Shown here one piece after another: positions 1 to 62,347 of a stretch of 64,000 nt of DNA. This stretch comes from Raillietiella orientalis. Its lineage: Eukaryota. The notes under the pieces are model-generated. The model did not search any database, was not told the origin of the DNA, and saw only the letters and a program-made list of their open reading frames with translations. The stretch covers positions 1,240,001-1,304,000 of the forward strand of contig JAYWIR010000006.1 of NCBI GenBank assembly GCA_036172245.1, in the 5' to 3' direction. Position numbers and translations under genes: made by a program. Positions within the stretch are counted from its first letter, which is position 1. Each line of letters begins with the position of its first letter.

Positions 1-158
1 ATCCGACGCTCCGCCCAGTTGCATGCGCCCTTCGTCTCTTTTTCCCTTTTTTTTTTTTTTTTTTGGGGGGGGGGGGGGGATCCCTTTTAAACATTTTTCC
101 TTTCTTCTCGCACCAACTTCGCCACGTTTTACCGTCACCCTTGGCCTCTTGTCCACCA

Positions 159-199
159 CGACTCCAATCATAGAACGAAACGTTCTATGATTGGAGTCG
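159..199. repeat. Perfect 19-bp inverted repeat with 3-nt loop
   Basis: cgactccaatcatagaacg (159-177), then aaa, then cgttctatgattggagtcg (181-199). The arms are exact reverse complements. Confidence 0.95.
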
Positions 200-1192
200 G
201 TTCTCCACCAGTCTCTGGCTCCAGATTCTCGAACGCTGCGGACTTTCACGTAACAGCCGGCCGCAACTTTGCCTTCTCCGTCCCTGCGCTGCAAATCCTT
301 ACCCCTTTCTCGCATTCTTCATCCTCTCTTCCTTCGCGATGCTGACGTTTCGTGGGTGCAATGTGCGACCGTTCCTCTTCTGATTCGTGTGTGTACGAGC
401 ACGCCCTTTTCGTTGTACACGACAAATAACTTTCAACTATTGAGAAATTTAAGAGTAGTTCTTTTAGTGTTCGAGATGAAAAGCTCAAGAACACTTGAGT
501 GGAGCTTGTGGACACCACCGTTCGTGGTATATGTACTCCATTACTCGCCATGCCATCACTACCAAGTAGTCTGCTGTGTCTTCCTGAGCATTTTCGGTGT
601 TTCCGCTGTACACGGTTTCGAGCACACTCGCAAAAAAAAAAAAAAAGTACCGAAACGCATCCTCAAAAGTCGCCAGCGGGCTATGAAACGGTTGCGCCTT
701 CCACTCGGATAACTCTTACGTGACCGCAAGATGATGATGATGATGACGACGACGACGTGCCTGTGCGTCAGAGCTATGAAACCCAAACAGACTTTTGAGC
801 ATTTCGGATCCGCCAAGGAAGCTCGTGAATTCCACCCCGCTCGGATTGCTTCGATCTTTTGCGAACTTCCCGCAGCGAAAACACAGTTCCCACGCCAAAG
901 ACAGTTCGTGTTTCGAGCGTGTGCATTTGACCCGTGCTGACCGAGTCCCTGGCGGCGAGCTTTGACGCGTAACCTCTGCCAGGAATCGGCAGGTGCGTGG
1001 AAACCACCGCCATGTCACCACTTCCGATTTATGAACTGTCTCCTCATCCGGTAGCATATCATCCATAGGGATTTTTTTTCCCAGCAGCATCGGGAATTTT
1101 TTTTTTTCCTTCCTCTCTCTCTCACTGGTAAAACCGGAAGCAGAAAGCTAAAAGCCATTTGCTTGGTTCGCAAGCGCCACCCGGCGTGGTCG

Positions 1193-1224
1193 GGTGGTGG
1201 TGGTGGTGGTGCTGCTGCTGCTGC
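1193..1224. repeat. Compound (GGT)n/(GCT)n microsatellite
   Basis: ggtggtggtggtggtggtgctgctgctgctgc read directly. Confidence 0.9.
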
Positions 1225-1634
1225 TCTTTGCAGCAGGAACGCGGCATCCCCGTGCCGGCGCTCGCTCAAACGTGTCGCTCCAGCCTCGTCACAAAAACTC
1301 CCCAGTCTGAGCGTGGGCTACCACCTGAACACCGAGTAACATGTAGGAGTATAGCTCAAAGGAAAATATACGGGAAAAAACACATCGTAACAAAAATAAA
1401 CTCGTTCGTAGGCGGCTGAATTGAGAGATGGATTCAAGGTCATGGAATTGATGAATAGCTAATGAAACGGAAAATGCGTTTATTTAATTTCGGTTCACAT
1501 TATGAGTGTAGGACTATAGGAACTTTGGATTATCTTGGCCTTATTTTTATGCTGCCAATACATGAAGGTAGATTTTTTTTTTTTTTCCATAGGATTGGAC
1601 ACATGATTTGCAGGAACTCTATACAAAAGTATAC

Positions 1635-1635
<1 letters not shown>

Positions 1636-1665
<30 letters not shown>

Positions 1666-1722
1666 ATATATATATGTATGTATCTATCTATATATATATA
1701 TATAAGATTGAATATATATATA
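1636..1722. repeat. Imperfect (TA)n/(TATG)n microsatellite
   Basis: Run of tatata/tatg units downstream of the BTB gene stop codon. Confidence 0.9.
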
Positions 1723-1894
1723 GTAAAGCAGAGTGGAGAAAGGAGGCTGTAAAATTAGCCCAATAATCAAGGCAGATGCCCTTGTCCAGCATTACCATGG
1801 CACTAAATTGTCACCGGGCTACATGAAAACATGGATACAACTGAACCACATGCACTCCCCATTTGCTTCTTGTATGAGGGCAACCTTATTGGTA

Positions 1895-3505
1895 TCACTG
1901 AGTCATCAGGCTATCCTTTTTTTTATCTTCATCATCACTGGACGTTAAATGATTTGGGGGGTGAGAATGGGGAACAGATGGTGTTACAGTGTGCCAAGCT
2001 TGGGATTCAGAGTCACTACCAATAGGTTCATGCTTTGATAAGGGTGGAGTGCAGTTAGGAGCATTCTGTGAGGTCTCTGCAGTAAGAGAAGCCATTCCAG
2101 GAGAAGCACTTTGATTGATGAGGCGGCGCATTTTGGCTCGTTCATTTTGAAACCAAACCTCCTCACAAGCCACTAAGTATGCTAAGATAGGTATACCTAC
2201 CTTCACTACTCCACGCTGCAAGAAGAGCTTATCAGCTAGGAACTGCATCTCATGGCTAGTAGGATGTTGGTTTTGTGCAAAGTATGTGCGCAGAATATTT
2301 ATCTGCACAGGACTGAATACTGTCCTTGGTTTCCTCATTCTCTGCTGATTAAGTAACCTTTGAGCTTCACTGTCACTGCCAGCTCCATTCCCATTTGGGG
2401 TTGATGTTAAATTACGGCCTAGCAACCATGTCCATGTAACAAGCAGACAAAATGCACACATGAACTAACCAATGAGGGATCCCGATGAATTAAATTGTGT
2501 GAAATGACCCAATCCTGGATTAAAGCCTTGAGCGATTTGTTGATAGCTCTGCATCATGTTCACCATCTTAGCTAAATTACCAGACGAAAACGCTGAACCT
2601 ATGGTAGATTTCCCATTAAACTCTTCATCAGCATCCATCAAAGAGTTGTCATCTTCATCAGCTTCATAATCATCAGCTTTTTCTAATTTTGGCATACGGC
2701 CTTTGTCTCCACTACCAAGAGATAAATTTTCAGGTTCCATTTGTTCTTTGACACCATCTGTCAAATGATTTCCAGTTAACAAAGATCTATCGGATTTTGA
2801 GCGCTTGACTTTGTCCTGAGGGGAAGGAGATCGGGGAGATGCGGGATTAGAATTATGTTTGTTTTGTGGAGAACTTGAGCGAGAAGGAGTACCAGATGAG
2901 TCCTGCAGATAAATAATGAAATGAAAACAACTACTCAGTGATGATAACTACGATGACTGTTACATGATGACAAGAGACTTATGACTGAAAGTTTTCAAAG
3001 CTTAACTGTTAGCAAAAGAATGGAAGGCAGGTAGAAATGACAAGATGAAGAAAAATAAACAAACAACAATAAAATCACCTTATCATCTGCTAAACCACGG
3101 ATGCGGAGCACTTCAGCTGTCCTGAGAAATTCAGGTAACTGATCATGTGACACATTGACTTCTCCATGATACACAAACTGTAGCAAAGATTCCAGTTGGC
3201 AATAACTAACATCCCTTAAAATGACAATTGGATGTTGGCAGGGGTTATCCTAAAATACAACAGAATAGCAAATCTGAGGAGAACCGAAAAGTCGTTATTG
3301 CACTTACTTTGAGCAAATCTTTAAAATAAGGACTACAGGCAGAAAGAATCATTTTGTGGGCTTTAATGCTACCTCCATCACAAGCTAAAGTAACATCTAC
3401 AAAGTCTTCTTCTTTACGAAGGGATTCAAATGCAGATACAATATTGCTGTGAAAATTATTCCATCTCAGACAAAATCTTTGAGGCTTTTTTTGTGGTTCA
3501 CCCAT
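1895..3505 (-). CDS. Tramtrack/broad/bab-type BTB-POZ protein with C-terminal Q50 homeodomain (~427 aa, 5 coding exons)
   Basis: Exons 3505-3308, 3249-3079, 2902-2470, 2418-2201 and 2158-1895 are all GT-AG and phase-consistent, totalling 1284 nt. The N-terminus [50 protein letters not shown] is a ttk-type BTB. The C-terminal part [32 protein letters not shown] is a homeodomain. Confidence 0.88.
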
Positions 3506-4539
3506 GTCTCACATCAGTCACAACACATAACCAGAACGAACACAAAGGAAATATTTATATACTCGGCATGGGACATACTTGTTTTCCAGTTTTGTATACC
3601 AAAACACTGTGAATAAATTAGTCAAACACATAACACTGAAAATGTATGTCTTTGATCATTCCTGTAAGAAAATTGATTGTCACTTCATGTAGCAAATGCA
3701 AGACTTCACGAAAAGTATTCGGCGAGAAGCTTTCAATGAAAGAATTAGTCTTGTCACATGCATGTTTATTTCAACTAAATAAAGAATATGGTACAATGAA
3801 ATCAATTGGATTTCTCGGATGAGATTCTTTTATGATTAAAATAAAGACCAGGTCTACTTGTATTTTCTTAAATTCAATAGATGTAATGATGAAAGATGTG
3901 AAGTAAACGTTTATTCAGTTTTTCATATTAGGTGCTACATTGATTCCAGTCAAGATTGCTGATATCTAAGCTAACAAAAACTATAATCAAATCAGCATTC
4001 CAATTTCAAACAGGAAGTTGTGGGGCTACACATCTATACATAAAAAATGAAAAAAAAGACCATACACAATTTAAACAAAAACATAAGCCAGCTGGTTCAA
4101 ACATCAGATACTACAATAATACAACACCTCATGTTTATTGTGCACTATAAATTTCATACCTTGGATTCAAAAACAACCACAAAGGGGAAAACAGACCTTC
4201 AATGTAGGTATTAAATATTGTGCACGATACCCAATCCTTTTCTTGCACACAGAATGATAGAAAATGCACTCACTGTGTAAATTCAAATTAATGAATACTG
4301 GTGACAAAATAATGATTCAGTTCTTTTATAACTCAGAAACATATTAAAGAATACCTACAAACTGACACTATTATTAATATACAAGTATGTCACTTTCAAT
4401 ATGTAGTATTTTTTACAGGAGCATTAAGTGCAACTTGCTGGAAAAAAGAACACTGACAATTTCTTAATTTCAATCAAAGATGTGATAGTCATAATTTTTA
4501 GTGCCATTATTCCAATATTTCATCACTTTAGAGTGCTTC

Positions 4540-5765
4540 CTTAATAGTTTTACATCATCAAAATGCCCAAGATTTCAAGTTGTGAACACTAATTATTACT
4601 TGTACTCACATGTACATAAAACTATACAACATAATGAACAGCTATGGCTAAGTCAGCAAGCTTTTTTGAAATGAGACAAAAAGGAAAGCTTTAAGAATTT
4701 GTTTGGACAAGGTTTAAATAATAGGTTTTCATCTATATATTTTAGGGTGATTAGAAAGATAAATATGCATCAGCCTAGGCATAAGTTTGTGACTGTTTTC
4801 TTAATTGAGAAGCATCAATTTGGAGGACAGTTGTGATCACTTTGCACATGACAAACAACAAACAGGTAAAGCTGTCATGAATCTGCTCAAGAACCCATTT
4901 GTGCCTTAAAATTCATTACAATCAATAGAAGGCAATCAGTTTTTCGTGTTACATTGCATTTCTGATTTTTCCGATAATAGATTTCATATTTCAATCCTAC
5001 CTTCCATAAATTTACTGTTAAAGATTTGAAATTAATCATTAACTTTCCTAATTTAAAAGGTTTCCCAACTGAAGTCAATATAAACCTTTAGTTTCTAAGT
5101 TCCAGGCTAATCAATGACTTTTATTAAGCAGCACTGATTGATCCAAAATTATTTAGAAAACAAGTGTATTAAAAAGCTTACAAGCAATCTACAAAGACAG
5201 TTTTAGGGAAAGACCACATAAATAACATTCATCCTTAGTACATGATCGTATGGATGCCATCTGTTATACCCAAATAAATTTGAAGTTTGACATAAAAGAT
5301 TATGGACATCTGACATAAACCTCAATGTTGGAAATTCTTCCGTGCTTTCATAAAAAAAAAAAGTTTTGGAACATCAATACATTCATAAGACAGGATAATG
5401 AGGACAAGAAGAATGCATTATCTAATATCTTTTTGCATGTTAGCCATGACTTTGGCTATTACATAGTCTCGTCATGTTTCTGTATGTATTTGTTGGTATT
5501 TTTCTTTTGGTATGCATCTATTTTCCAGTCCACATCTCATTTAACAATCATTTTTCTCTTTTTATCTCTTTAGGTTCCAAAATTTATTGTTCTTCAGCCT
5601 CATTAACAATTTTGCTTTGACAATCTCAACATGGCATATCTGAATGCATACATTCTGGATACATAATTTGATCCACATTTGAAAACCAAATACAATCACT
5701 AACCGCTGATGAATGCGATAATCCCTCAAACAATGTTCATCCATGCAGTAAACCAGGTCCAACAT
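4540..5765 (-). mobile_element. Highly decayed non-LTR retrotransposon (LINE) endonuclease-end/RT remnant
   Basis: Minus-strand peptides occur in LINE order with roughly expected spacing: LDLVY (~5760, APE end), TDGIHT (~5250, cf. GPDGI), ILTSVGKPF (~5070, cf. ISLTS..GK) and FDDVKLL (~4550, cf. ADD.KL). Many stops and frameshifts. Confidence 0.4.
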
Positions 5766-8700
5766 TCATACATAATTAACTAAACAGCAACAAAAACTCA
5801 TAAGGTATTATACTTATTTTTGGTGCATTCAAGATTATAATCTTAAGTACATCAAAAACGACAACTATGAAAGAAACCTAGAAAATCATTTTCCTAAAAA
5901 TTTCGAACACGCCAGTATCAAGGCAATCATATGTTTAAATTGAGATTGCAAATATTGGAGTCTCTTCAAGTGGAACTACATGGAAGCTGTACCAAATATG
6001 ATACTGTGTTCAATGATAAATTATACGATTTTAATTCATTTCAAGCTAAGCTATGCTTAAATTAATGAGGCAGGGTGTTATTTAAGGAAGGCAAGTGCTT
6101 ATGCTTACTAATGCAAGCATCAATTGACACAAACTTTATCACTATAATCTTGAGTTTTATATCATGAAACAAATATCAAAACGAAAATTGCAAAAATACC
6201 AATTACCAAAAGGAATAAAAACAAAATATACAATTAAAACTTAAAAACTCTTCCGGACGACCCTATTCACAAACAACGGTAATCTATCGTACTCAAAGAT
6301 CATGTAAAAATGCAGCTTTATATGCAAGCTTCATATAAATTTCATGTATGTCTTAAAGGAAGCGGTTCTTTTAATTCCTCATGTTTTCTACTGATTTAAA
6401 AAAATCCTCATATCTGAACACTTATTTTACTTTCGCTATAAGAATTGCAATTTAATAAGAAATCTTGCTAATAACAAGAATACAGAACTTTGAGTAAAAA
6501 AAAATAACCTAGAATTATGAAATAAATACTATCGCAAGGTCCCATTTCCAAACTTAATCAGGCAAAGAAAAGCTTCTCAGTGGCAGTTCCAACACACAAG
6601 CACTGTTCTCAAGCAAATTGAAACAAATTTCCAACTACAAGAGGGAACACTGAAAACACAGATTCTTGCTCATACCTGTTCTGTCTGATACCCTGAAACT
6701 TAGAATAGAATAACTACACACACTGTCCACGCATCAGTCTATATCTAGTATTTTCCACTGTAATTTACTATATCCGAGGCTGTAAGTTCCTTACTATGTA
6801 TCTTTCTGGTGCAATGACGGCAAACCCCAAATCTTTGCAATTACACATTCACATATCTTTGCAAATTGTGGAAAGAATTGTCGAAAAACATTCTGCTACG
6901 TTTTCAAGCCCTTTATCTTTTCTTTTCATGTGTGAGTTTCCTTCCTTTATGATCGCCCATGCACAAACATATTTACCATATAAACTTGCCTTACATTGCT
7001 TATAATTACGGGATGAGAAACTAAACAATGAAAGTTTGCATACGGTGCTTTAAAATGCACATAATCACACTTTCACTTTCGTAAACACCGTTTGATAAGG
7101 AACCTAAAAAAAAAAAAAACGAATTTTTACGAATCCTATTTACCATCTTTCATGCACTTTCTAACATTTACAGCGTTGCCATTTGCTGTCCATGGGGCAT
7201 AACTTTGTGATTTTCTATCCTTTTATTGCCGTACACTACCTTGGGAAACTACTTCATTAATGTTTACAGCCATTGTTTTCATCGTAACCAAATAAAATTC
7301 CAGCAAACAATCAGCAAATCCAATCTAAAAAAAAAAAAAAATACCTGAAACACATACGTTAGCTTTGTTGGTATACTTGGTACACCATCTGTAAAGAACG
7401 CAACTCTGGCGTCAAGTTTGACATGCCATAACAACGTTCAGCTGAACTGTATACATGTCAACGAGCCCCTGTTCTCAAAACGTATGGTACGAAAACTCTT
7501 ACAAATATCCCAAGATTGTAAAGTGTGCCTTGAGAAATACGCAGCACTAGCAGAATCCATGCACTAAAGTTTTTATATAAAGGTACTTTAAATGTTGTGG
7601 ATGTCACATATGGATATCACAGGTGGCCTTTATTTTAAATAAAAAGACGTTTTTTTTAATCAGTGAAGAATAAAAGTTCCCACTATTTTGTATTTAATAA
7701 AAGTTTTATTTATTCGTTATATCAGAAAACGAGAAATACAAAAATGAAAACAATAGAAATAAAAATTGAATCTACAAAGAAAGCTAACTAGATGGTTAGA
7801 CACAAGTACATCCGTTGCTACCCTCAGCAGTTAAGGACACTAATCTCAACAGAGAATTAACTAGAAATTCAGTAATTGAAAAAGTCAGCTATTATCTTTA
7901 CACTGAGCTGCAGTATCTGAAATATTCAGAATTTTCTCCCCATTTTTTATAACAAAAATTTTCAAGTTTCCTCCATTATTGATAAAATGACAAGAAACAG
8001 GCAGGCACTTTTCAGGAGGTTTACAGTTCCGAATTTTATTTTTAAAACTTGTATTGTCAGTACGTCACAAAATTCAAAAGTTCGTGTACATAATGACCGA
8101 ACTGAACATCGCTGTCCTCTCTTGTTAAGTCGTATCTTCGAATCTGCAGGGAATTGCCCATCCCAGGAAATCTAAATATCTATAAGTCTCATAGTACATG
8201 GGAGTCTCATAGTACATCGAAGAAAAATCTGAATTTGAAACGTAATTTTAAAGCATAAAAAAATCTAGCTTGGGAAATTGAAGAAAGCACCCAACGCACT
8301 GTATAATGAAATAGAAAATTATAACAGGGAGTGGGGACTCGGTCGAGATCTAAAAATTACAAGCATTTAATGTACCTATGACGTTATATGGTATTTGAAA
8401 GCAGTACGTATTTGATGTAACCAAAAAGAATAAATGGTTAAAAGAATTATTGTTAAAGGGAAGTGGGGCCTTATTAGATTTTGTTTCAAAAAAAAAACTT
8501 TTTTTTGTTTGTTTCTTTTGAACTCTTTATCCCTATTATGCGTGTAATTGTTTTGCATGGGTAAGAGAAAATTGCAAAAGTTAAATGGAGCAATTCTACA
8601 TTCTATCAAAATATGAATAACACAGTTGTTCCTCTCAAAGAGCAGCCATTCTAGAATTGTGTAATGGTTTCCTGTCTTCGAACTGTACAGTAAACTCTCG

Positions 8701-11700
8701 TTCTTTCAAATGCATGCCTTAAACAGTAAACGAATCAACCAAACTATGCATGAGAAAAATGGATGCTTAGACCTCAAATTCTAGGTGATTATTGATTATA
8801 AGAAAGACACCTCACAATAAAAGAAAAAACTGATGTTTTCCATGCACCGAAATGCAAACTTTCTTACCCTTTCAGCAAACCTCTGAAAAAAAAATTGATT
8901 TTAAAACGAATATCATACAGCATTATTAAGTCGTACCACGGTGAATATGAAGACGGTTTCGACATGAAAAAATCAGAGATGGAAATGACACAGAAACAAA
9001 TATTCTTACAGATTAAGATCCTCCTCACCCTAATGATGAAGCAAGCAAGGAAATCCTCGAAGCTCACAATTATGTGATCTGGTAGAAAAGTTGTATTTTC
9101 AAGATTTAACATGAAACTGTAAATCAGCAAGCGATTTTTCAGCCCTAGCTAAATTCAAATTCGATTTCCTATTATCAGAAAATTGCATCAGCTATGAACC
9201 TTGTCATACGTCGGACCGGAATGGAACCATGGCAGCTAACAGGAGCACTGGCAGTGTGCGTGCCAATAAACACAAGAGTTACGAGGAGACGAAGTGATCT
9301 TCCGAATCTTGCAAGATGGATCGACTTCCAGTACATCTTTTTCCTTTTTTTGATGAAATCCCGATGATCCTTGTTTTCCACATAGTTAATTCAAAATATG
9401 TTATTCTTTCTGAACCAGATCAATGAGTAAAGTTTAGTTACTTCTCTAACTGATCCACGTGATCTACCTATGGATGGAAGGCAACAAGTGCTAAGATCCA
9501 GTGCTACTCCCTTGGAGCAGTAATTATCAAAGACATAATAGATTTCCGAGAAGTAACTTTAATCCTGTAAATAAAAGCAGAAATGCGGCGTCTCCGTCAT
9601 TCAAATAAATCTGAAATGCTGACATCTGACTTGAAAGTTGGCAAGATGAAAAGTATAAACCACAATCTGTGCTAATCAGGATGAAGACAGAAAGTTTTTT
9701 TTCAAGACGGTTAAAGAACACCCGATATGTGTCCGTTGCTAGTGCAACAACAGTGTTTATGTAGTTGGTTCGATGATCAGGTCGACTGGGTAATATTTCT
9801 GACATCTCTGCTGGATGACATATGAGAGCATCGAAAATGCAGGGTCATTCAGTTTTTCTGAATGACATTTGTCTTCTCATTATAAAGTAATATGATGAAT
9901 CTAACTTCATAATGGCTATTCTTAATGTTTTTTGAGGAAACTTACTGAAACCTAAATGCTTTCAATGTGTAATGATTGTTCTTCCACAGTTGGAAATCTT
10001 TGGAAATCGAAATCGGAACGTCTCATTTTCCTTCCTATAGCTTTGACCTCATCAAGTATAGTGATCCGTTTTATCTCAGAGATAGAGCAGCACGTTTTGT
10101 GGGGCAGTTAATTCACATAAAAATCCTTGTAAGTGTTTACAAGCATATTTACTGATGCTTTCCTCCAGGATTGCGTGTTGCCAGGGGGTTTCTTCATTGG
10201 AGCAAATGGGCAAGACAGATAAGTGAATCATTTCGTCTTCCACTTCTAGAAAGAGGCCCTTTCAAGAAAGCCTGGGATCTCATGCAAATCGTAATGGACC
10301 ATCTCACAAAGAGGTTCGCTCCTGCAAATCTGTACTTCATAGATATGAAAGTAAATAACAGTGAATAACGCTTCCAGTTACTTTTCCTTCAGTGATCTTT
10401 TTCGGTTCCTGTTGTTATTCGGGAAAAAAAATTTGTTTTTTCCCTCCGGGGGACTGAGAATTATTTATCCTGTCAGTAGCGAAACAGCTGCTCCGTGCAT
10501 GACATGGGAGCTGTTGGGAAGGCAGGAAGCCCTGAACTCTCCAGCAAGCAAGCGGTGGTGCTGAGCTTCGAGCTCGCTGATGCCTGGTCCCCAGGGAGTT
10601 GGAAAGTTTGGAGGTATTTGCAAGAATCGTGCTTAAATCCATGTACTTCTCTAGGGAATCGATTTCGTTCTGGGATTTCTAATAATTTCCAATCTACACG
10701 GATAGAGTCCTGATGAAATACCAAATTTTAGTAATGGGAAGAAAAGAAATTCGTGAGGTGAAACTACGGTGTTTGATTTTGCTTGGAAACTTTTCCCTGT
10801 GGAAGTCAGAGGGAAGTTTGCACGCGTAATTCGCTGCAAATCTGCTCAACTGTGAAAGAATAGAAAACTTGCATATGCATTTTGTAAGGAGGCACCAAGA
10901 GGCCAAGGGGTCACCGGTGTAGCTCCAAATATGGAAGTGTGCAGTTTAAAACAAACTTGAATCTGCAACAGCAAGGAATCAGCAAAACCTCGGGTCCAAA
11001 ACCACCACATGGTGAGTGCACTCAACGCGGGCAGCGATCCATTTGCTGGACATCGAAACGCTCGGGAGGAAGGTTTTCTAAAGAGTGTCCTGTAAGAGCG
11101 GCCGAGACCGAAAGCGCGGACATGATGAATTCCTAAAGGGAACTGTATCTCAGGGAGCTGACGAGTTGGAAACTGCTTTGATCGGATCTGCACTTGAGGG
11201 GTCAAGAAATTTCGTTTTCTCCTCTTTGGCACGCAACGAGACAACACATCTCACAAATACAGTTCAGCGGTCAATTCTTATTAGAAGAGAAGAAAGAGAG
11301 GAAAATGGAGAGAAAGGCTTTGACATTGATGAATTTCAATTTAAGTACTTCAAGACTTGTGGAAGGAAGTGGAGCTCTCATTACTAATACTTGACTTGCC
11401 ATACGGGAAACCTGTAGCTGCAACTAAAGATGGAGCTTCCGCCTGTGGTTGGGACAAGTGCCGAAGCATTGCTGAAAGAGAAACAGAATTTCAGTGGCCG
11501 GGGAATGTAGGGAAATTTAGTGTTCCACCACTCAAGGACATCTTTGTGCCCAGAGCTTGATGTCTTGATGCCCAGTAATGTCTGTGGAAACCAAATGTGC
11601 AGATTGCATTAGAAATTCTGCCTTCCTGTCGCCGGTTTCAGTTATCTGTGTCAGAGTTACAGGCGGAATGTTAGTGTCTTCTACATTATTCCCATGTTAG

Positions 11701-12653
11701 TTTGCTTGATTAAAAATAAAATCTTGAAGCGCTTCATCTGAAGAAACTCAAAGAAACAAAAACCCTTTTCGTGGTCGTGAAAGGTGATCCGGTCATTAAA
11801 ATAGAAAAAAGCAGAGTTACTGACTGTGCAATCTAACGATTCTTGTAGGCATCGCTGCCCACCTAAACGGATCGTACACTAACCTTCAAGTTCCTATACA
11901 GTGCATGAGATGTTGAAGGTGGCTGTCTTTCGAACACAAACTTGCATCTGAAAATGAGTTCTAAAATGCATTTGTTGCCGCGCCATAATCAGTGAATTCT
12001 GCAATCTGATGCGAAACATAAGGAAAGGAATATCGGAAGTCTGAGGAATCTGAAAACAGGTTTGGAGTATTCGATATCACTCTGGAGTTGCTTTCTACTC
12101 GATTCTTCGTGCAACTGGGGGCAAGTCGATGGAGTCTTCAGCTTGGTCTATTCCACCTAAAAGCTAACACTCCGCTCCAGCTCACTTTGGCGACGGAATT
12201 CTACAAAACCTCTGTTTTCCTGTGTCTTTTACACGAAGACTTGCCCGGAGGCGCGCTCTGCAAATCGCCTGCGACCGTCTTCCGTGGCAAAAAGTAATCC
12301 CATGCCGAAATGTAACCACCAGGAGTGCACTCACACATGAAAATCCTCACAGCAAACTCCGTACTGCCGATTCAGAATCTCTTGCGAATGCGAACAAACT
12401 TGACTAAAAGAGAAAATACATAAATCTCACCAGGGCATATTCCTCATGAGCTCTAATGTGAAACAATGAGCTCTCGAAAACTCACGCTTCATACAAATAT
12501 TTCGATCAGCTTTTTATTGGCTCACATATCACAGGGAGGAATGATCCAATCCATAAACGCATGCCATAATTCAATTTGCGATTCACGGTTTATATTAAAT
12601 ATTTTTGCAACCTTGAAAAGGGTCACAGATGTGATGGCAGTTCTTATAGCCAA

Positions 12654-12850
12654 TGTAAAAGTACAAGGCTAGAAAGGAGAATCGATGATTCCGAATGATC
12701 TGCAATTAATAGAAGAATAAGCGAATATCACATCCAAATAAAGATTTACGTCAATGTTATAAAGACGAACTGTTAACCATCAACGCTAATCTTAATGTTG
12801 ATCAGGTAAGACAAGAGATCGAAAGCAAAATTTCTTGCAATGTAGTGTGA
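12654..12850 (+). pseudogene. adk: Wolbachia-like adenylate kinase 3' fragment (nuclear transfer)
   Basis: [28 protein letters not shown]/(frameshift)[35 protein letters not shown]. It has a premature TGA at 12696 and a 1-nt frameshift, and lies directly upstream of rpsM as in alphaproteobacterial gene order. Confidence 0.75.
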
Positions 12851-12908
12851 CTCTGGATTGTTTTATGGTATAAATTAAGAGTTATTATTAATAAAGAATC
12901 GGAGTACC

Positions 12909-13032
12909 ATGGGCACGTATTGCAGGTGTAAATGTTCCAGTAAAGAAATGCGTTCCTTTTGCATTAACTTATATACATGGTATAGGTGTTGCTCGTGCAA
13001 GCACAATTTGTCATGCTTGTGAAATTGATAAG
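12909..13032 (+). pseudogene. rpsM: Wolbachia-like 30S ribosomal protein S13, truncated 5' fragment
   Basis: 12913-13032 reads [40 protein letters not shown] (S13 signature ARIAGV..P..K....LTYI.GIG). A Shine-Dalgarno-like GGAG sits at 12901. The ATG at 12909 is 1 nt out of frame. Confidence 0.88.
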
Positions 13033-13209
13033 ATAGTCCTTCTCATAATAGTCCAAAAGAGGTAAGATAAGGATTTATAGTAGTGAGGGTAAAGATGCCA
13101 GCGGCTTATCATTATGACTTCGGAAAAAAAAGCAATGGAAGCTTTGGATGAAGGAGAAAGCATAGCAGATGTTGCCAAAAGGTTTAAATTTGGCAAGACG
13201 GCTTTATAT
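13033..13209 (+). mobile_element. Wolbachia-like IS630-family element, left part (transposase N-terminal HTH, frameshifted)
   Basis: ATG at 13095: MPAAYHYD.(+1 fs)KKAMEALDEGESIADVAKRFKFGKTALY, matching the recalled IS630 N-terminus AYSxDLRxK..G.S...VA.RF. The segment begins near a TA dinucleotide at 13034. Confidence 0.75.
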
Positions 13210-14489
13210 ATCACCCGGATATGCCAGGACATTTATTATTCTGATTTTTTACAAAATTAGATAATTATATAAAAGTCTATCAATGTTGTTTGTCGTGGAG
13301 GAGCACTTGGTTCTCTCACGCTGGCGGACTTGCCGTGAGCCGGTGCTGAGACCGGCAAGGTCCTCTCCCGAGGCGCAGGGGAAGGGGAAACTGAAACAAA
13401 AAGAGAAATAACGGGAAGGGGAATAGTTATATGGGGGAGTGGAGGGCAGGGGGGGGGGATCACTGGGCGCCTGGGTCGGTCCTCTGCATCCTATCCAGGA
13501 TGCTGACAAGTTCTGCTTTGATTCCACGCCTCTCCACCCACGGCAACCCGCAGGGGGGCGTGTAATTCTTCAGGATAGGGGGCACCCCGGGATGGGGGTC
13601 CGCCCTATGAATCCAGGAAGGACTCGGAGTCCGTTCCTCTGACGCTTGGGGAGGGATCCCCCCCGCATGGGGGGGATCGCACCTCCCACCCTGGTTGTCT
13701 CCGAAGGGGAACCCCGAGGGGAATCTCCTTCCTCATTCTCTACGGAGGGGCACCCCCCCCTAATGGGGTGGTGTCCTCTCCATTTCAACTTCTCCGAAGG
13801 GAACCCGAATCCCTTCGCTTGTAGGAATTTCATCTCCGGAGGGGACCCGCAAGGGAACCGCTCCTTTATTCACTCCTCTGAAGACAACCCCCGAAGGGAT
13901 GCTTCCGAAACTCAGAAGGGGCGCTGCAGCTTCCCGCAGGGGGATCGCTCTCGCTTGCTTCCTTGCACTCTTCTGGAGAGGCGACGACTCGGAGGGACCC
14001 CCCAACAGGGGGGTCCGCCCCTTTGAACAACTGGAGAGGTGCCCGTGAGGGCTCCTGCTCCATCTTGAAACCGGAGGCGGTCCCCCGGTGACGGGGGTCC
14101 GCTCTCCTTTGCACACAGGAGGGGGAACTCCCCACTCCTTTATTCCTGGGAGGACCCGAAGGTCGACTCCCATTGTTCCGGCCTTCATCGGGAGGCCGCC
14201 GGCTTAATCCACAGCCGGTGCCACGCCCGAATGTCTCGGCCAACCAGCGCCATCTTGCAGGAGAAACTCGGAACCCGACGACGCAGTGGCGTCAGAGTTT
14301 CTGCCGAAGTATTCGAACTCGCGACGCATGGTGCCAAGTTCTGCTTTGATGCCACCTTGTCGCCGTCTCCAAAGAGATCGTCGTCCAGTGGATGGCGTCC
14401 CTGCATCTTTGGCCTCTTCTTCAGTTCCACCTTTGCACGCAGCAGAGGACTGCTAGAGATGCAGCGGGACTCATATAAAGCTGAGGAGA
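13210..14489. mobile_element. 1.28 kb mostly GC-rich insertion interrupting the IS630 transposase (unclassified, possibly a retroelement fragment)
   Basis: Sharp GC rise at ~13290-14460. Flanked by tttatat (13203-13209) and tttatct (14490-14496). Contains an internal direct repeat caagttctgctttgat (13507-13522 and 14335-14350) and degenerate SEGxP-encoding repeats. Confidence 0.6.
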
Positions 14490-14586
14490 TTTATCTGAGT
14501 GGAGAAAAAGACGTAAGGAAACAGGAGATTTTCAGTCAAGAAAGCCTGGCAGCGTGGGTTATAATCATAAAATTACTGACTGGGAA
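14490..14586 (+). mobile_element. Wolbachia-like IS630 transposase, continuation after the insertion
   Basis: LSEWRKRRKETGDFQSRKPGSVGYNHKITDWE follows directly on ...KTALY from 13209. Confidence 0.75.
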
Positions 14587-15900
14587 GATAATGTATTCTT
14601 CAATCTACTTGAGGAAGCAAATTACGAACAGCAAAGTTTAATGAATTTGGTTCAGCCGAGAGATAATGCTAATAAGATTTTCTCTGGAGCTCCAATCTTT
14701 TTGCTACTGCTCCTTCGTAGCTTTGTTCCATGTTTCTCAAGCGCAAGTACCGTTCCATAAAGAAGGAAAAGCCCCTTTTCTGTCCGTCTCTTTCATTCAT
14801 TTTCGTTTGAGCCCCGTCGCCGAGTAAGTTGACTCATCCACTACTTGAACTGTAGGGGGGCCATCCATGTAACGTAAAATAAAAAAGTCAAATATACAAA
14901 CGAAATTTTATACATTTCACATTTCAGAAATCTTAGGTTTATCTCTTGGTGAAAAATGGAAGCCACAACACATCTCTTGCATGCGTATACTGTGCAATGG
15001 TTGTGATTTGTGTCACCATCTTGAATTTGAAGCGCATCCCTTTGCTTACTCCTAGGGATTCTCTAAGACTGCGGGTGACCACTGGCATAATTTGCATTAA
15101 TCTGCTTGAAATACCAAAGAAGCTGCTAAACGGAGGGTGAACACTGACAATACCTGCTTTTTTCCTTTTTTTGCTTTTTAGAATCTCGTGAACCTGCTGG
15201 GTTGCGCTTTATATTTTCTTCCAGAAAAAAAAAGAAAAAAAAAAGCATACGTCTGTGTTCTATGTAAAGCAAGAGCAGTCAGCTCAGTGGACCGAAGGGT
15301 CCTGGTGTTTTGAGCCCAAGCGATCACCAACACGACAACAAGCCTCCCGAGAATCCTCTCTAGACCTACAGAAATCGATACCTACGCCTGTTGACGGTGA
15401 TGATGACCCCCATCCAGAGTTCAGCCAACGGTCCCCGGGAACTGCGTGTTGTCGTAGTTGACAACGAGCAACAGTTCCCGTGTTGACATTTGCTTCACAG
15501 CCAAAATGCAAGCCCACATTTCGGGTGTGACTTTCTTCGTCCGTTAATGAAACAATCCGCAACCGCTTCGAATTGAATTCGTTATTTTGTTTTTTGCCTT
15601 TTTGGCTGCGGTGATGGCTTTCGCATTCACGAATTTCGGACATTACGAGTTTGAGCGGAGGGCTGCTGAATTGAAAGACGCAGGCAAAATCGGTAAGGTT
15701 CACATCGGTAAGGACCCACGCGGCACATCCTCCACCTGATTTTTGATGATGCGAATTCCGAATGAATTGAGCACAATGGGGAGCTGCTGGATCCCCAGTG
15801 GGTCGCGGCACCTTCTTGTGGTCTGATTGGCGCCAAAAGAAATGGGAAACGAGGGTGCGCCTCCACCAAACCGCACAGAAACCGAAACGAAATGGGTTGC

Positions 15901-16240
15901 TGAAAAAACAGCGCGTTCCAATTAGGTTGCAAGTACCGTACACGATGTGCATTACGTACACTTCAGAATCGCAACTACGCTGGGTCTCACCCGTTGATCC
16001 TTTCTCCACATGAGGATCTTCGATCACGCTACCCACTTCACAGTAGGTGATGATGACAGTTTTCCGTTATTCCGTTTCAACCTGGATTTTTCTGCCACTC
16101 AGCGGTACATAGAACTGAACTGAGCACGCTTCATCGAAACACGAACAGTACACGGAATCCATCTAGCTGCGATTCCGAAACGTACGCAATGTACATCGTG
16201 TACGGTACTTGTATAATAATTGGAACGTGCCGTTTTTTCA
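15901..16240. repeat. MITE/foldback-like element: ~84-bp imperfect inverted arms around a ~175-bp spacer
   Basis: The arm at 15901-15984 (tgaaaaaacagcgcgttccaatta..aagtaccgtacacgatgt..) is the near reverse complement of 16159-16240 (..acatcgtgtacggtacttg..taattggaacgtgccgttttttca). Confidence 0.8.
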
Positions 16241-17140
16241 TGTGCATTTTACTCGGTGGAAGATCATCTTGAAATACACTCGGGTGTTCCGGAGACGCCG
16301 ACTTGAAAGAACCTTGCCGATGGAATATGCTACGATTCCATTACTTTTCTAAAGTTGCAAGTTCTTGAAGCCGGGGAAAACTCTGTGCTTCCTCTGTGCT
16401 GAAAGTAGCAGCCCCTTGCCGGTGACCCTCTTAGAGAACCTCTTCCCATGGTCAGCCAGTGGTAATTGGGCATTTTGATGGAGGTCGTTACAGACTAACA
16501 TCTTTGTACATGGGTTTTCTCAAAAATTGATGGAATTCTGGAATTTCTCATTTCTGGAATTTGATTTTCACAGCTCATGCTTCATTATCGAGGGGCACCG
16601 ATGAGTAATGTGCCCAAAAACGAAATTCAGGAATATAGTCCAAACTTTTTTATCCTTCCTCCTTATTATGGCATCTCATGTTTCATAACACAGAAGACAA
16701 AAATGCCGTAAATGCAATAATCTACGCAATTATATAGCATGAAACGTCTCGATGTCGTCAGAAACTCTGGTCAAACTGCACAGCATTGACAGTTTCAGAT
16801 CACAGTCTCATGTCATGTGCAAGTGCTTATAAGTTGTCACATTAATGCTTGTGTCTTGATGACATCAAGACTTACCAACAGATTCGAGCTTTTGGGAATT
16901 TATACCCATCCATACTCATACATCAAATAACAAGAGATTTGTAGCAATGAGCTCTGCAGTTCACATTCAAGCCTATAATAATATAACCCATTAAAAAAAT
17001 AAGCTCTATTTGACTGTGAAAACAATTTTTTGCATTCAACTTTTAAACTGGCTTTTTCTGTGTGTAATTCAGTGTGCAAACATGGAAATGAAAAGCAAAT
17101 GCTAATAATTCAGCACCTGATTTTCATTGCACTGTTTCAT

Positions 17141-18882
17141 TCATTTAGAGTTTGCAGCAAAAGCAGGAATTCCGGTAATAGCCCGTCCCAAAATCAAGGC
17201 ATGGATATCATGGGTTCCTAAAAACAAATCAATCATTTTCACTTTAAAAGGACCAACCTTCATAAGTGTTGACTCCTTCTAAATTAAGCACATGACGAAT
17301 GACATGATATTCATCACAAATACCATTTCCTCCTAACATATCTCGAGCTTCACGAGCAATATGTAATGCCTTTCCACAAGAATTGCGCTTTATCATGGAA
17401 ATGTGTTCTGGCAATGCCCTGAACATTATATAAGATAACATCTACAGTTTTGCTTCTTTCCTTACCGACCCTCATCCTTAAGTCTGCCGATGCGTAAACA
17501 TGTTTGTAATCCCAAAGAAATCTCTGTCAGCATATCTGCTAATTTCTTCTGAATAAGCTGGTTGCATGCTAAAGAACGTCCAAACTGAAAACGATCAAGC
17601 ACATACTGTCGAGCAGTGTGTAAACAGAATTCAGCAGCACCAAGAGCACCCCAGGCTATACCATATCGTGCATTATTTAAGCAACTGAAAGGACCCTTAA
17701 AAATTTATTGAAGCCATTCACGTTAACCAGGACAACCTTCAGTCCTGAAACATTGGGTAGGCAGTTGTCTTCTGGAACTTCCACCCCATCCATCAGTATC
17801 ATGCCTGTAGAAGAAGCTCGCAAGGAAAACTTGCCTTCGATTTTTGGGGCACTTAAACCTTCCATACTCTTTTCTAGCAGGAACCCTCGAATTTTCTCAT
17901 CCTCACATTTGGCCCAAACGACAAAAATATCTGCGATTGGTGAATTTGTAATCCTAGAAAAACAATAAGGAAACAATAAGGAAATAAATGTGCATTAAGA
18001 TATATACCAAGTTTTGCTTCCATGGATTACATAAACTTTACTTGAAGGTTCATAAGAAGCACGAGTTATCATGCCTCCTGGATCACTGCCAAAATTTGGT
18101 TCAGTCAAACCAAAACAACCAACTAACTCACCCTTTGCTAACAACATACATCAACTTTATGAATATCTGAAAGTTCAACATATTTTACCAAGTTTGGGAA
18201 GGTATCTTTGTTTTTGCTGTGATGTTCCATACTGCCATATAGGGAACATCACCAGAGAACTTTGAACACTCATTGCTGATCTGTATCCACTATCAACTCT
18301 TTCAACTTCTCTTGCCATTAAACCATATGCAACGTTGGATACACCTGCACATCCATAATCCGGAAGGGTGCATCCGAGCATACCACATTCTCCCATTTCA
18401 TACATGATGTCTCTATCGAACACTGCGATAATAAATCCAAAATTACTATTTGGGAATTATAAACGTCACGTTCAAATTTGCAACTATGATAAGTAAATGG
18501 CATTCCAAATAACGGAAATTTTCACAACCACAAACTAAAATCCTCATACCTTCATTCCTGAACGCATTCAGGACACGTGTCATAAGTTTCTCTTGGCAGT
18601 AATCATGAACTGTGTTCTGGATTAATCGTTCTTCGTCGGTGAGCTGGCTGTCCAAATCGAAAGCATCCTCCCACTGGAAGGCTAAAAGGTAACAACACCG
18701 TTTCAAACCTATCAGCCGATCGACTGGCCGTACAAAGGGATGAAGCCATGCAAAGCGTTTCAATGCGCTAAGGTTCAAGAGATGCAGATGATGATCAAGT
18801 TACCTTTCGTGCTCAAGAATCTCCCGGAGCTACGAGCTGCCACTGTCCACGATCGTCCCCCTTTGAGAAATCGTCTGATCAT
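17141..18882 (-). CDS. GCDH: Glutaryl-CoA dehydrogenase, mitochondrial (~419 aa, 8 exons)
   Basis: Exons 18882-18804, 18681-18550, 18422-18189, 18137-18008, 17953-17737, 17695-17466, 17418-17258 and 17217-17141 sum to 1260 nt. Motifs include [46 protein letters not shown] and [37 protein letters not shown]. The N-terminus is an Arg-rich transit peptide. Confidence 0.96.
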
Positions 18883-21800
18883 TTTGCCTGCAAGGGACAC
18901 GCGTCCACCGATCGACGGGCGCACGGGACGAGGTGCCACCTCCAGACTGGAGATCCTCCCGGCGGTTCGCCCCAGCATCCGTACCGGGATGACACGGCTG
19001 CCGGACGGGACGGAGGAAAAGCTTCCGTGGTTTGACGAATAATGCAAAATCCCCCGCAGAACTGAAGCGGCGCCCGGAAAACGCGGAAAACGAAGCTGCA
19101 CGAAATTTCCAGAACTCCTGCCGGCTGCCGTGCAGGGCCTTCGCGACGGCTCGTGGAGAAGCGCCTCTCTCCGCGAGTGTACACACACCGCAGTGCTGTA
19201 CAAACCGGGAAAGGTACAAATGCAAGCACGCAGTAAATACGGTAACACGAAGGGAACTCGAAACGCCGCTGATGGAGTCGCACGGATGGAATCTGGAATT
19301 CCCGGTTTCTTGAAGGCTTCCGTTTACGAGTTACAGCAAGCTGGTAATTGCTGAGCACTTGCTCTTCTTTTTCAAGCTTGATGGAAAAAATTCGACAGAG
19401 AGCATTTTTCTTCCCTTCCCCTAGCAAAGCCGCGGGAGTGAAACAGCGTTTGGACGTTCTCGAAAATATGAAAATGCTAATTAGTGATTGCTAATTTCTA
19501 TATCCAGATTCGCTGAATGAGTGAAAAAATGGGATAGAAAACGATAAATAGTGTACTTAGAGAGATGACTATGAACTAAAACAAGCAATAGATCACTTGA
19601 TGAACTAGCATTCATGAGAAATCGAAGGGAAGACGGGGGAATCATCAGAAAGGCTCTGCTCGAAACGAAAGCACACGTTTCGAAAGTAAAAGTTTTTTTT
19701 TTTTTTTCCATGGATAAAAACAAACTACCGTTCATCATGTGAGAACACTCAACTAGAAATAAGATATGCATTTTGAGGTTTCCTGAGTTGGGGAAAAGTC
19801 AGTTTGATGTTTCCGTGTACATGCAGATTGGCATGTCTTGGACTTCAGTCGAGAAGCATCAAAATGCTTCAGGTTAATCTCGAAAGTGCTTCGTTAATTA
19901 TCAGTACAAAATATATTCCCGGAAAACGATACTGAATTCTTTTCAAAAGGTTTTCTTTTAAAAAAAACGGAGTACTCAAAGTTTAATTCGTTCAAGACAA
20001 GAGTGCTGTGCCCTATTGAAAATATTGAAAAGTGTCCTCTCTCTTTAAACTGAGAACTTCGTATCGAGCCGAAGCTGACTATACCTTTAAAGTAATTGAA
20101 GGTAATCCACTAGCAAAATATCAGCAAAATAAACTGAATAACAAAAGGAATCGAAAATAAACTAGAAACTTATGCGTTGCTGAGTTTATTAGAGTAACTT
20201 TACACATCTATGAAGGCACCCTTATTAATACTAGAAAAAAGAAAAAAAATCCTTTCTTTAGGTTAGAAAGTTAATTCCAAAATAGAGGGCATTCGAAAAC
20301 TTATGCCATCTCTCATCGTCAAAGACAAATAGCGTTACAATAGAATGGTTTTAAAAAGAAATGCTGTTTTTTTTTCCTAAAATGTTTTGAAGTATCAATT
20401 ATATAAAATCCAGTCCATTTATTCATCAAACAATTAGTAATTGATGGATTTGAGCAATGAGTCCTGGGCACGAATGCTTTCATGTGCTTGTGCGGTAAAA
20501 AGTGGTGGGGGACGTGGTGTCAGCATTTAATGGGATGTTCAGTTTCCAGGCATTTTATCCCAATCAGGCATCGAGAAATAATAAGCTGAAAATGACATTT
20601 AGTGTAAGGGGCGATCTTTAGATCTATTACGTCCAAAAATTTCTGGGGTGAAGTTTATTTCAGAGATCAAAATGAATCCGAGCATTGGAAGCCAAGCTAG
20701 AGAGAGAGCCTGAAGCAACGCTGGGAAACGAAATGCGCTCGACTATTTTCCTGGCTTGAAAAAGCCACATGAAAGAGATGAATAAGAGCAAGCAATAGAT
20801 GACTTCATTAGTTGAGGAATCCTTCACAACCCATATCCCTTAAGACTCGGTGTTAATTTTTTTAATGAAATTCCACGTTACTTTTAAACCCTCATAGGTT
20901 ATTTACAAATTTCGTGGTTCCAGCGTGTGACACTTGATTCCCTTTTTTGACGTCCTAATCGACGTTGGTCAAGCGGGATTTTGCTTCGTTACTTTCGCTT
21001 CAAACAGATCGTCTGTCGGAAAAAAAAAAAAAAGGTGGTGAAAATTATTAACAGGGTTGCAGTCAGTTGCGCACGTTGTAAACACAACGAGCTCAACTCA
21101 CTCGACACGAAAATTCGAAAATTCCCGCAACGTCAACTCTTTAGGAGCACGATTCGCGGTTTTTCGAGTGGAAACTCTGCAAGGGTTCCGCCATTTGCAG
21201 CAGTTCTACTCGGCTCGAGCTGCCGGCAATCAGTGCTGCCAGCACGCGGCGTGAAAATCCAATGCGAATTCCTTCAGGTGACAGCGGCGGGAAAGGCCGG
21301 TTTGAAGCCATGCCCGTGGGGAGAAGGATGCTCCCGATTTTACCTGCATGGCAGCTCATACCCCAGAAATTGTGTGGCATGAAGTGCTTTGTGCAATTGC
21401 CTTCGCTGAATGCTTGCACGAACAAATGGAATCGGGGCGCTTTAATCCTTATGCAGTGATCCGAGGACACAATGACAAAGCCGAAACCCTTGGCACATCA
21501 AATTTTGAAGTTTTACATCGCAAAACACGCAATGTATTTACGTTCTGTGAATTCATTTTATAAATTTGTTTATGAAGCGCGTTTTGGTAATGGGTATTCA
21601 CGTTATCACACAGTTTGTGCACAAAATCACACAAATGCCGTAAATTTTCCTATGAAAAACGATTTTTCGTTCCAATTTTACTATATGTACAGCCAAGGCG
21701 TGTACGAACTGTTTCGGTAAACCTTTTCAGTGACAGTTGTAAGGTGATGTCTTTTGCATATGTACCTAGGAACCCATCTTAATGAGGAAGGCCATGCATT

Positions 21801-22302: not shown

Positions 22303-23376
<1,074 letters not shown>

Positions 23377-28079: not shown

Positions 28080-29447
28080 ATGGATTTTCACAGTGCTCCA
28101 CCAGAGAATAGTATGATCCAATGCATCTTTTTCAGTGAGTTTCATCCAGAAGTTGGAAGGAAAGTCACCTATCAAGTGAGCTCAGGTTCAAAAAGTGCCT
28201 GATAATTTTTCTGTTGGCCAACAGGTCCCAAAGGACTTCCTGAGCAAAGAAGTCTTTGATGCTGTTAGTGCCTATATTATCCCTAAGAAAATGATTTTGA
28301 AGAAAGTAGTCACTATGTAAGCTCATATGTAGCATTCTATATCTGGAAGATTAAGGTGTGTGCAGAAATACTCTAGGCTATAAAATCACTGGCTATCCTG
28401 TTACTATTTGCAAAGAGCGCTACAAACGTGGTGAACTGCGTTTTAATCTCTGCTTTGTTTGTAGCTGTAGACACCGTACTTTACAGTACGAACCTGTAGT
28501 TATCAAACTATCTGAATATTTGGTATGGAAAAGACTTAGTGTTGTCTAATTGTACACTTGTACAGGTAAATTTAGAACATGAAAATCAATTCCTTTCTGA
28601 TGAGAACAAGAAAGAACAGCTAGCCAGTATGTTGCAGCATATCCTGCAGCAGCTGAATGCTCATCAGTTTGCAGTTATTTCACTTGGTTTGACTTAATTA
28701 TGTAATTTCCATAGCTTGTTATCTATTCCTAGATGAGATCAATACACTGTACCTGAAAGTTGTCAGCATGGTCCCTTATCCACCTTCTGTATCAAACTAC
28801 GATGTACCTATTTTCTTGGAAAGCAGGTACAACTTCCAACTAGACCAATGGGATCTGACAACTCAACTTATCATTCCATATATTAATGGCCAACTATCAG
28901 TCAGTAACATCAGCAAGCTGACACAAGTTGATCTTGAGCTAGTGAAGCTGTGCATCCAGAATCTGATGTATGGTATCTTCAAATAGTCTCTAAATTGGGT
29001 CTCAGTTATTTCAGATTAGTCACCCTTTTGCCTATTTTTGATTATTCTAACATATATGTGATCACCCCTCAAATTGATCAAATGGCCCAAAACCGTAAAC
29101 TGCAACTCAAGTGTCTTAATGCTGTTATGGAAGATAAACAACTGCCCTCATTTCGTCAAGTTTTTCAATTATTCTGTGCCATGCAAGCTGGCACTAGCAT
29201 AAGAGACTTGTGCAACCGTTTTAATCCCCAAGTTAATCACATTAACATAAAGAAGCTAGTACAGTTTGGTTTGATGCATGGTTTTCTTCGTCGCTGTTAT
29301 GAATATCCCATCAGCACTGAGGATGAAGGCACTTTATTTGATGGTACCAAACACATTGATTTCATTTGCTGCTCTCAGAATACAAAGTTAGATCAACTTC
29401 TCAAACACCTTGAAGAGGAACCTAATATCATGATTTTTCGTTGTTAG
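28080..29447 (+). CDS. NPRL2: GATOR1 complex subunit NPRL2
   Basis: IQCIFFSEFHPEVGRKVTYQ|VP, YKITGYPVTI..RYKR..L.FNLCFV, QWDLTTQLIIPYING and KLVQFGLMHGFLRR. Multiple short GT-AG introns. Stop TAG at 29445-29447. Start is 28080, alternatively 28113. Confidence 0.93.
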
Positions 29448-61800: not shown

Positions 61801-62347
61801 TGGCTGGTAAATGAACAAATTGCAGAAAGCTTTAAGTAATGCATTTTTACAGAAAGCCCAGGATGCATTTAATGACTGGATGAAGTATTTCTATAACCAA
61901 CCACAGCCACCTATGTTGCATACAGACAATTTCATTGAGCGGATCACAAGTGAGCATCAGGAGCGCCAGTATGAAGAAGCTTTATCCCAGTGGCAAAGAG
62001 CCACTGCACATTACACTGATAGGGCATGTAAGCACTTGCAAGCAGTGCTTCAGTTCCCAGATGGTGGTTGGCTGGTAGACACTTGTGTTGAGAAGGGTGA
62101 TGAAAGACGCCAGCAGGAACTTCAGAGCTTACGCAAGCTTTGTCTGCCGCAAATCTTTTTTTCCCTTGAAAGAGTAGTCATTTCCTCCAGATCGCCTCAT
62201 GGAGTCTCATTTTTATTGGAAATACTTATGGATGAAAACCATAAGCTCTATAGCATATTCGAACACCAACATTTGCAAGTATTTTATGCTAATTTGGCCA
62301 AATCTATGGTGGAAACCTTCGAAAAAATGCAAAGTATCGTTTTTTAG
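57243..62347 (+). CDS. NUP107: Nuclear pore complex protein Nup107
   Basis: QEKKCWSLVSSLYRDRL, CQIVVDWLE, WENTL..LVTQLDPDAPERQ.KKLHDLD, GQPWRAAILEGWRLYHDPN, RKIDALEWL and VLQFPDGGWLVD..LRKLCLP. The core runs 59581-62347 with 39-46 nt introns. First exon 57243-57468 is inferred from a phase-1 match to the acceptor at 59580. Confidence 0.93.

Follow-up and report, generated by a model that had tools for sequence, protein, structure and literature searches.

A small Wolbachia-derived fragment, very probably a dead nuclear transfer, between animal genes

The 64,000-nucleotide (nt) stretch of contig JAYWIR010000006.1 analysed here (positions 1,240,001 to 1,304,000 of the forward strand; the whole stretch is called the window below) carries at 12652-14585 a block in which about 660 bp of Wolbachia-derived DNA lies in animal DNA, the single such piece found in the 64 kb. 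Along the plus strand, the block consists of the 3' end of adk (12652-12850), an AT-rich adk-rpsM spacer (12851-12909), the first 41 codons of rpsM (12910-13033) and the beginning of an insertion sequence (IS) of the IS630 family, which is present as two pieces (13034-13209 and 14487-14585) on either side of 1277 bp of non-Wolbachia DNA (13210-14486). The original prediction had described an adk 3' end, a spacer with GGAG, an rpsM 5' end and an IS630 piece inside host DNA, a composition that is borne out here by nucleotide identity and by a Pfam match to ribosomal protein S13. Its location was also right, while its borders of 12654 and 14586 are each displaced by 1-2 nt. The prediction made no mention of the GC-rich 1277 bp at 13210-14486, which do not resemble Wolbachia DNA and split the IS.

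We are confident that this block represents a nuclear Wolbachia transfer (nuwt) that is fixed in an arthropod chromosome and has no function. The fragment is 93% identical to Wolbachia DNA at the nucleotide level, all 60 genomes examined from the genus match it, and in a tree it is nested among Wolbachia sequences. In this assembly host DNA stands on both sides of it on one molecule. It also departs from the sequence of the living bacterium: adk has acquired a premature stop and a 1-bp deletion, rpsM has lost its start codon, the IS carries a +1 frameshift, and 19 states occur in the window alone.

The adk-rpsM fragment and its lesions

The region 12000-15500 was read directly and as stop-to-stop frames of the plus strand. 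Within it, 12652-13033 is 93.2% identical at the nucleotide level to Wolbachia loci L002 and L012 (blastn E 9e-163 for L002; L and G numbers are our handles for loci and genomes). The adk part comprises the last 65 codons of the gene with their native TGA, and the spacer, with GGAG at 12901-12904, aligns column by column to the Wolbachia spacer. The rpsM part was identified by codon comparison and by its match to Pfam Ribosomal_S13 (PF00416; E 4.9e-8, 33.9 bits against a cut-off of 31), which covers profile positions 1-39 of 128; the match is above the gathering score, yet what it marks is a fragment and not a gene. The adk piece of the window alone matched no Pfam family, and the intact adk open reading frame (ORF) of L012 matches Pfam ADK with an E-value of 1.7e-40.

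Lesions were called codon by codon against the consensus of the eight closest Wolbachia sequences. The adk piece has a premature TGA at 12696-12698, where eight of eight relatives have TTA, and a 1-bp deletion at 12744/12745, together with five replacements and six synonymous changes. In rpsM the start is lost (GTG to TGG at 12910-12912), the remainder carries four further replacements and two synonymous changes, and the gene is truncated after codon 41, at 13033. A difference from the consensus in the spacer, AGT to AGA at 12895, lies upstream of the rpsM start. Altogether 12 of the coding differences alter the protein (nine replacements, one stop, one lost start and one frameshift) and eight are synonymous. 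The prediction that every part carries a stop or frameshift thus applies to adk and, as described below, to the first reading frame of the IS, orfA, with its +1 shift; the rpsM fragment has neither an internal stop nor a frameshift, and its lesions are the lost start and the truncation. The rpsM gene is uninterrupted in Wolbachia, with 121-122 codons after the start in all 18 loci checked. The further claim that such lesions favour an aged integration over contamination is upheld by the damage in adk, rpsM and the IS and by these full-length rpsM genes.

The 19 private states fall within 382 bp and were scored against the same eight relatives. The window is 90.3-93.5% identical to these sequences, which are 91.9-97.9% identical among themselves, and the G+C content of the fragment is 33.8%, that of the relatives 30.0-32.4%.

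A scan with the 56-residue S13 frame against one genome per prokaryote species matched at least 600 stretches. Among the matches listed, 11 loci encode an S13 relative; ten of these come from Wolbachia or from metagenome-assembled genomes (MAGs) labelled "Rickettsiales bacterium" (73-89% amino acid identity), and the eleventh comes from an Acidobacteriota MAG (59%). When the whole window was compared with these 11 loci by blastn, ten gave matches, all at 12652-13035. Nucleotide identity was highest for L002 (93.2%), followed by wTis, the Wolbachia of Tettigetta isshikii (L001, 92.7%), L009 (91.9%) and wMoz (L003, 90.0%), and was lowest for wTex (73%). Of the 60 Wolbachia genomes that match the window, 59 do so in the adk-rpsM stretch at 69-93% identity, and the remaining one, G039, matches only at E 3.4e-4. 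These counts, with a best nucleotide identity of 93%, agree with the earlier suggestion that the best matches are to Wolbachia specifically. The adjacency of adk and rpsM had been cited as alphaproteobacterial gene order, and the closest Wolbachia genome locus reads secY-adk-rpsM-rpsK-rpoA, with Pfam matches to SecY, ADK, Ribosomal_S13, Ribosomal_S11 and RpoA.

The IS630-family piece and the DNA that splits it

The left IS piece (13034-13209, plus strand) contains the terminal inverted repeat and the start of orfA (ATG at 13095), and is 78-82% identical at the nucleotide level to the Wolbachia copies L038-L043 and 87% identical to a copy in G002 (G002:C120). The right piece (14487-14585, plus strand) continues orfA through the helix-turn-helix (HTH) up to "...KITDW" at 86-89% identity to copies in G002, G006, G014, G058 and other genomes. 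Of the 60 Wolbachia genomes, 27 match 13210-17000; apart from one short match in the DNA between the IS pieces, described below, all these matches fall in 14487-14588, and they end at 14581-14588. Together the two pieces keep IS positions 1-177 and about 168-263, that is, the first ~263 nt of the element; the other ~670 bp are absent, and with them the right inverted repeat and the DDE domain. An extra A in the A-run at 13124-13131 shifts the orfA frame by +1 into a TGA.

The source element in Wolbachia is about 930 bp long and present in many copies per genome. Its terminus was set from six fetched copies, all of which read TA+TAG...CTA+TA with an 18-nt inverted repeat. Of L038-L043, only two copies, L039 and L043, retain frames that are intact or almost so; the two frames of L039 match Pfam HTH_Tnp_IS630 (E 6.3e-11) and DDE_3 (E 1.3e-38). 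The Wolbachia element is therefore an IS630-family insertion sequence by its two domains. By the same comparison the window retains the HTH part only: Pfam gave a sub-threshold HTH_7 match at 13093-13260 (E 0.0065) and no family in 14485-14760. The right piece is 65% identical to L039 orfA over 51 amino acids by BLASTP, and a search for proteins longer than the 91-amino-acid IS frame returned 115 candidates, none at E <= 0.01. The window piece is thus best described as an IS remnant, its homology being read from the DNA. Its left inverted repeat begins at 13034 and is preceded by GA, not TA, and its right end is missing.

Relics of the same element occur in L017 (G002:C120:159-405), L019 (G001:C25:283-429) and L020 (G003:C55), apparently at one shared locus with common flanking sequence. 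They stop at the same nucleotide (...ACTGGGA) as the IS homology of the window, and different sequence follows. Their genomes (G002, G001 and G003) belong to the clade of the window in the tree described below. The shared endpoint may mean that the IS is prone to recombine or to suffer deletions at this point, or that a short derivative of the element exists.

The DNA between the IS pieces (13210-14486) was delimited by its flanks, which align to overlapping IS positions: the two pieces share 10 nt, positions 305-314 of G002:C120. The left piece ends in GGCTTTATAT (13200-13209), the right piece begins with AGATTTATCT (14487-14496), and the IS consensus at this duplicated target is AGCTTTATAT. 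The insert has a G+C content of 58.5%, with 30% in its first 91 nt and 61% in the remainder, and is single-copy within the window. Against the 60 Wolbachia genomes it gave only one 29-nt AT-rich match, at 13240-13268 (E 5.9e-4), and against plasmids and phages it gave no match. None of 13 insert ORFs matched a Pfam family, no tandem repeat was called in the insert, and no Rfam family was found anywhere in the window. Terminal inverted repeats, a poly-A tail and a coding domain are all absent from it. We read the insert as a later insertion of host DNA that left a target duplication.

The insert has some internal structure of its own. GC-rich hairpin motifs (a G-run, a 4-nt loop and a C-run; family D1) number at least five within 13579-14104, where a 16-nt motif also recurs, its four copies spaced 41-52 nt apart; Tandem Repeats Finder called no array there. 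The two copies of a 28-nt direct repeat (13500-13527 and 14328-14355) are 828 nt apart and 89% identical. When the 21-mer that they share was scanned in metagenome contigs, two loci were returned that share just 21-22 nt with it, a chance-like result.

Flanks, host genes and competing readings

The Wolbachia homology ends sharply on both sides. Left of 12652, a comparison with the upstream adk and secY sequence of L012 scored locally no higher than shuffled sequence, and 8000-12651 gave only six chance-level matches of 21-40 nt against the 60 Wolbachia genomes. On the right, the remainder of the full-length IS scored 22-26 against 14586-14760 where the null is about 24-25, so that no DNA similarity was detected past 14585 in this stretch; in BLASTP the orfA alignment continues to residue 53, weakly after "KITDW", and 14585 was taken as the right border. 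In a comparison with five Wolbachia genomes, 20001-64000 had no match, and 1-12651 and 14586-64000 together had none apart from a TA/TATG microsatellite at 1630-1702. The latter, a 79% match to a Wolbachia contig, was rejected as spurious, the microsatellite itself running over 1630-1710. The Pfam scan of the flanks covered 113 of the 135 ORFs of at least 45 amino acids in 8500-19500, the other 22 lying in 13252-14453 and being covered by the scan of insert ORFs. Beyond S13 and HTH it found no bacterial family; otherwise it returned exons of the host acyl-CoA dehydrogenase and one sub-threshold POM152 match.

As had been predicted, the block lies between intron-containing host genes. To its left is a homeodomain gene (Pfam; 1895-2464, minus strand), whose match takes in the first 46 of 57 profile positions and is then interrupted in frame, and to its right is a multi-exon acyl-CoA dehydrogenase gene (17247-18456, minus strand). 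The fragment is probably intergenic: it lies about 9.7 kb from the homeobox gene, and on its other side the acyl-CoA dehydrogenase gene has its 3' end about 2.7 kb away. Further Pfam matches in the window are to a proteasome subunit (22490-22867, minus strand), NPR2 (NPRL2; 28938-29447, plus strand), TRAPPC13 (29576-30163, minus strand), eIF5 in two exons (33630-35031, minus strand) and Nup84/107 (Nup107), in three frames (60912-62347, plus strand). The C-terminal exon of eIF5 matched 213 proteins at E <= 1e-10. Among the best 120 of these 213, identity is 60% or less, and the top-scoring named proteins are from arthropods, with molluscs, echinoderms, vertebrates and annelids lower. A quick single-gene tree of eIF5 placed the window among pancrustaceans on a long branch, with a split from the chelicerate and other rows supported by a Shimodaira-Hasegawa-like approximate likelihood ratio test (SH-aLRT) value of 99. 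The host is thus probably a pancrustacean arthropod.

Some other features of the flanks were noted. The homeodomain is broken after position 46, before "WFQNERAK", which fits an intron at 46/47, the classic site for this domain. Two arms of 77 nt that are 84% identical (15901-15977 and 16164-16240) form an inverted repeat 1.3 kb to the right of the Wolbachia fragment; it overlaps an open frame of 260 amino acids on the minus strand (15284-16066) without a Pfam match, and may be a host repeat. Low-complexity, homopolymer-rich DNA with frames reading poly-F and poly-P occupies 35687-36744, just upstream of eIF5.

The donor was placed with an IQ-TREE tree of 19 rows and 382 bp, a set assembled without a reference panel of all supergroups. 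The window falls in a clade of ten rows (ultrafast bootstrap 95, SH-aLRT 97) that includes wMoz, wTis and six G-numbered genomes. The end branch of the window is 0.061, and those of the other nine clade rows are 0.0025-0.058. The strain wMoz is assigned to supergroup F in PMC10195089. A literature search on the wTis strain found no paper.

Several points weigh against the interpretation as an aged nuwt of supergroup F-like origin with a later host insertion. The target duplication around the 1277-bp insert is imperfect, its two copies agreeing at 7 of 10 positions, and a simple transposon insertion does not explain why 14 nt of the target recur as their reverse complement at 14469-14482. Both junctions (12651/12652 and 14585/14586) are known from one assembly alone. 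The excess of AT-to-GC changes among the private substitutions (12 of 14 directional ones) is not significant (P = 0.15). The proximity to supergroup F is drawn from 382 bp of sequence and should be taken as a lead rather than a placement. Finally, the placement of the host goes no further than Pancrustacea and comes from a quick single-gene tree in which the row of the window fills only 45% of the columns.

The imperfect duplication and the inverted copy bear on how the insert arose. The inverted copy and the direct copy, separated by a 4-nt loop, make up a 12/14 palindrome (14469-14502) that resembles the product of snap-back templated repair of a break. An ordinary transposon insertion would leave the inverted copy unexplained, which makes filler DNA captured at a break a serious alternative for the 1277 bp. 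In its full form, this alternative holds that two Wolbachia fragments, adk-rpsM with IS positions 1-177 and a second one with IS positions 168-263, were captured together with GC-rich filler in one repair event. The resemblance of the inverted copy to templated synthesis, the disagreement between the duplication copies and the lack of terminal inverted repeats, tandem repeats, a poly-A tail or a coding domain in the insert would all fit such an event. Against it, the IS pieces are collinear, in the same orientation and overlap by 10 nt, as expected of a target-site duplication and not of independent fragments. We regard co-capture as possible but distinctly less probable than a later insertion into an IS remnant already in place. 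If it were true, the block would still be a nuwt, and the 1277 bp would be uninformative on its age.

The joint between rpsM and the IS is peculiar in a different way. The very first nucleotide of the IS, at 13034, follows immediately on rpsM codon 41, and an IS at this codon was found in none of the 18 Wolbachia loci checked. This exact abutment is unexplained by the interpretation as a nuwt. An IS insertion inside rpsM of a living Wolbachia should be lethal, and since rpsM is essential and uninterrupted in all 18 of these loci, we considered whether the two were joined somewhere other than in a viable bacterium, by ligation of an excised IS630 transposition intermediate to broken Wolbachia DNA during capture or by movement of the IS within an already nuclear Wolbachia insert. 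IS630 is a member of the Tc1/mariner superfamily, which is not known to need host factors. Such an origin would be direct evidence that bacterial transposon chemistry aided the transfer of DNA from an endosymbiont to an animal, and we consider it very improbable.

That reads of an infecting Wolbachia were misjoined into a host contig is very unlikely, even with junctions known from a single assembly. A Wolbachia-like piece of about 660 bp would require two misjoins, its genes, single-copy and intact in the relatives, have acquired a stop and two frameshifts and have lost a start codon, and it is broken by 1277 bp whose sole match in 60 Wolbachia genomes is a 29-nt one at chance level; the private branch of 0.061 also argues against a chimera. 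Contamination by a living bacterium is likewise argued against by the lesions, by the non-Wolbachia insert in the IS and by the animal DNA on the flanks and in the other ~62 kb. The donor comparison covered the genus Wolbachia rather than family-level outgroups, and two of the closest records are labelled just "Rickettsiales bacterium" MAGs, but a donor elsewhere in the Rickettsiales, or a mitochondrial copy, has next to nothing to recommend it, as those MAGs (G002, on which the genus search was centred, and G004, one of the 60 genomes that it returned) are taken as the same genus as Wolbachia and are 95-98% identical to named Wolbachia over the fragment, the window is nested inside the Wolbachia rows of the tree, and the IS is multi-copy in Wolbachia genomes.

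Proposed history and comparison with known systems

The block would be accounted for by the following sequence of events, of which both the capture route and the order are inferred. Wolbachia DNA freed in the host germ line may have been taken up by end joining where a chromosome had broken, bringing along the end of adk with the spacer behind it, 41 codons of rpsM counted from the start, and ~263 nt from the left end of an IS630 element. Neutral drift would then have introduced the stop, the 1-bp deletion, the start loss, the +1 frameshift and about 5% private substitutions. At a later time, 1277 bp of GC-rich non-Wolbachia DNA would have entered the IS and left a short target duplication. 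With a neutral rate of about 3e-9 per site per generation, the end branch of 0.061 suggests an age of the order of 10^7 generations of the host, an upper bound since part of the branch belongs to the unsampled donor.

On this history the fragment would be a molecular fossil, indicating that the host germ line once held a Wolbachia related to the clade of wMoz (supergroup F). Comparison of orthologous loci in sister species would make the nuwt a dated infection marker. There are also two practical cautions: contigs such as this one should not be filtered out as contamination, and a host should not be scored as infected from short matches to adk, rpsM or IS630.

Transfers from Wolbachia to its hosts are widely documented, and the window holds a small, dead and ordinary example. 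Among arthropod nuwts, the integrated wAna genome of Drosophila ananassae is an example (PMC4558871), and the nuwts of filarial nematodes have been used as "ghosts of symbionts past" (PMC12693587). Like the nuwts of arthropods and filarial nematodes, the block consists of Wolbachia DNA between host genes, is pseudogenised and fragmentary, and serves as an infection record. Unlike the known nuwts, the piece is very small (about 660 bp), with a donor that appears close to supergroup F and a host that is probably pancrustacean.

In relation to the IS630 elements of Wolbachia, the first ~263 nt are homologous at 78-89% nucleotide identity and the inverted repeat starts at the same nucleotide. Unlike those elements, the remnant keeps only the left ~28%, has neither a DDE domain nor a right end, is shifted in frame and split by foreign DNA, and adjoins rpsM at its left end without the usual T of TA. 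Nuclear mitochondrial DNA segments (numts) presumably follow the same route, in which organelle or endosymbiont DNA is caught at chromosome breaks and then decays neutrally. Unlike in numts, the donor here is a facultative bacterium, and hence the fragment also reports on the infection history of its host.

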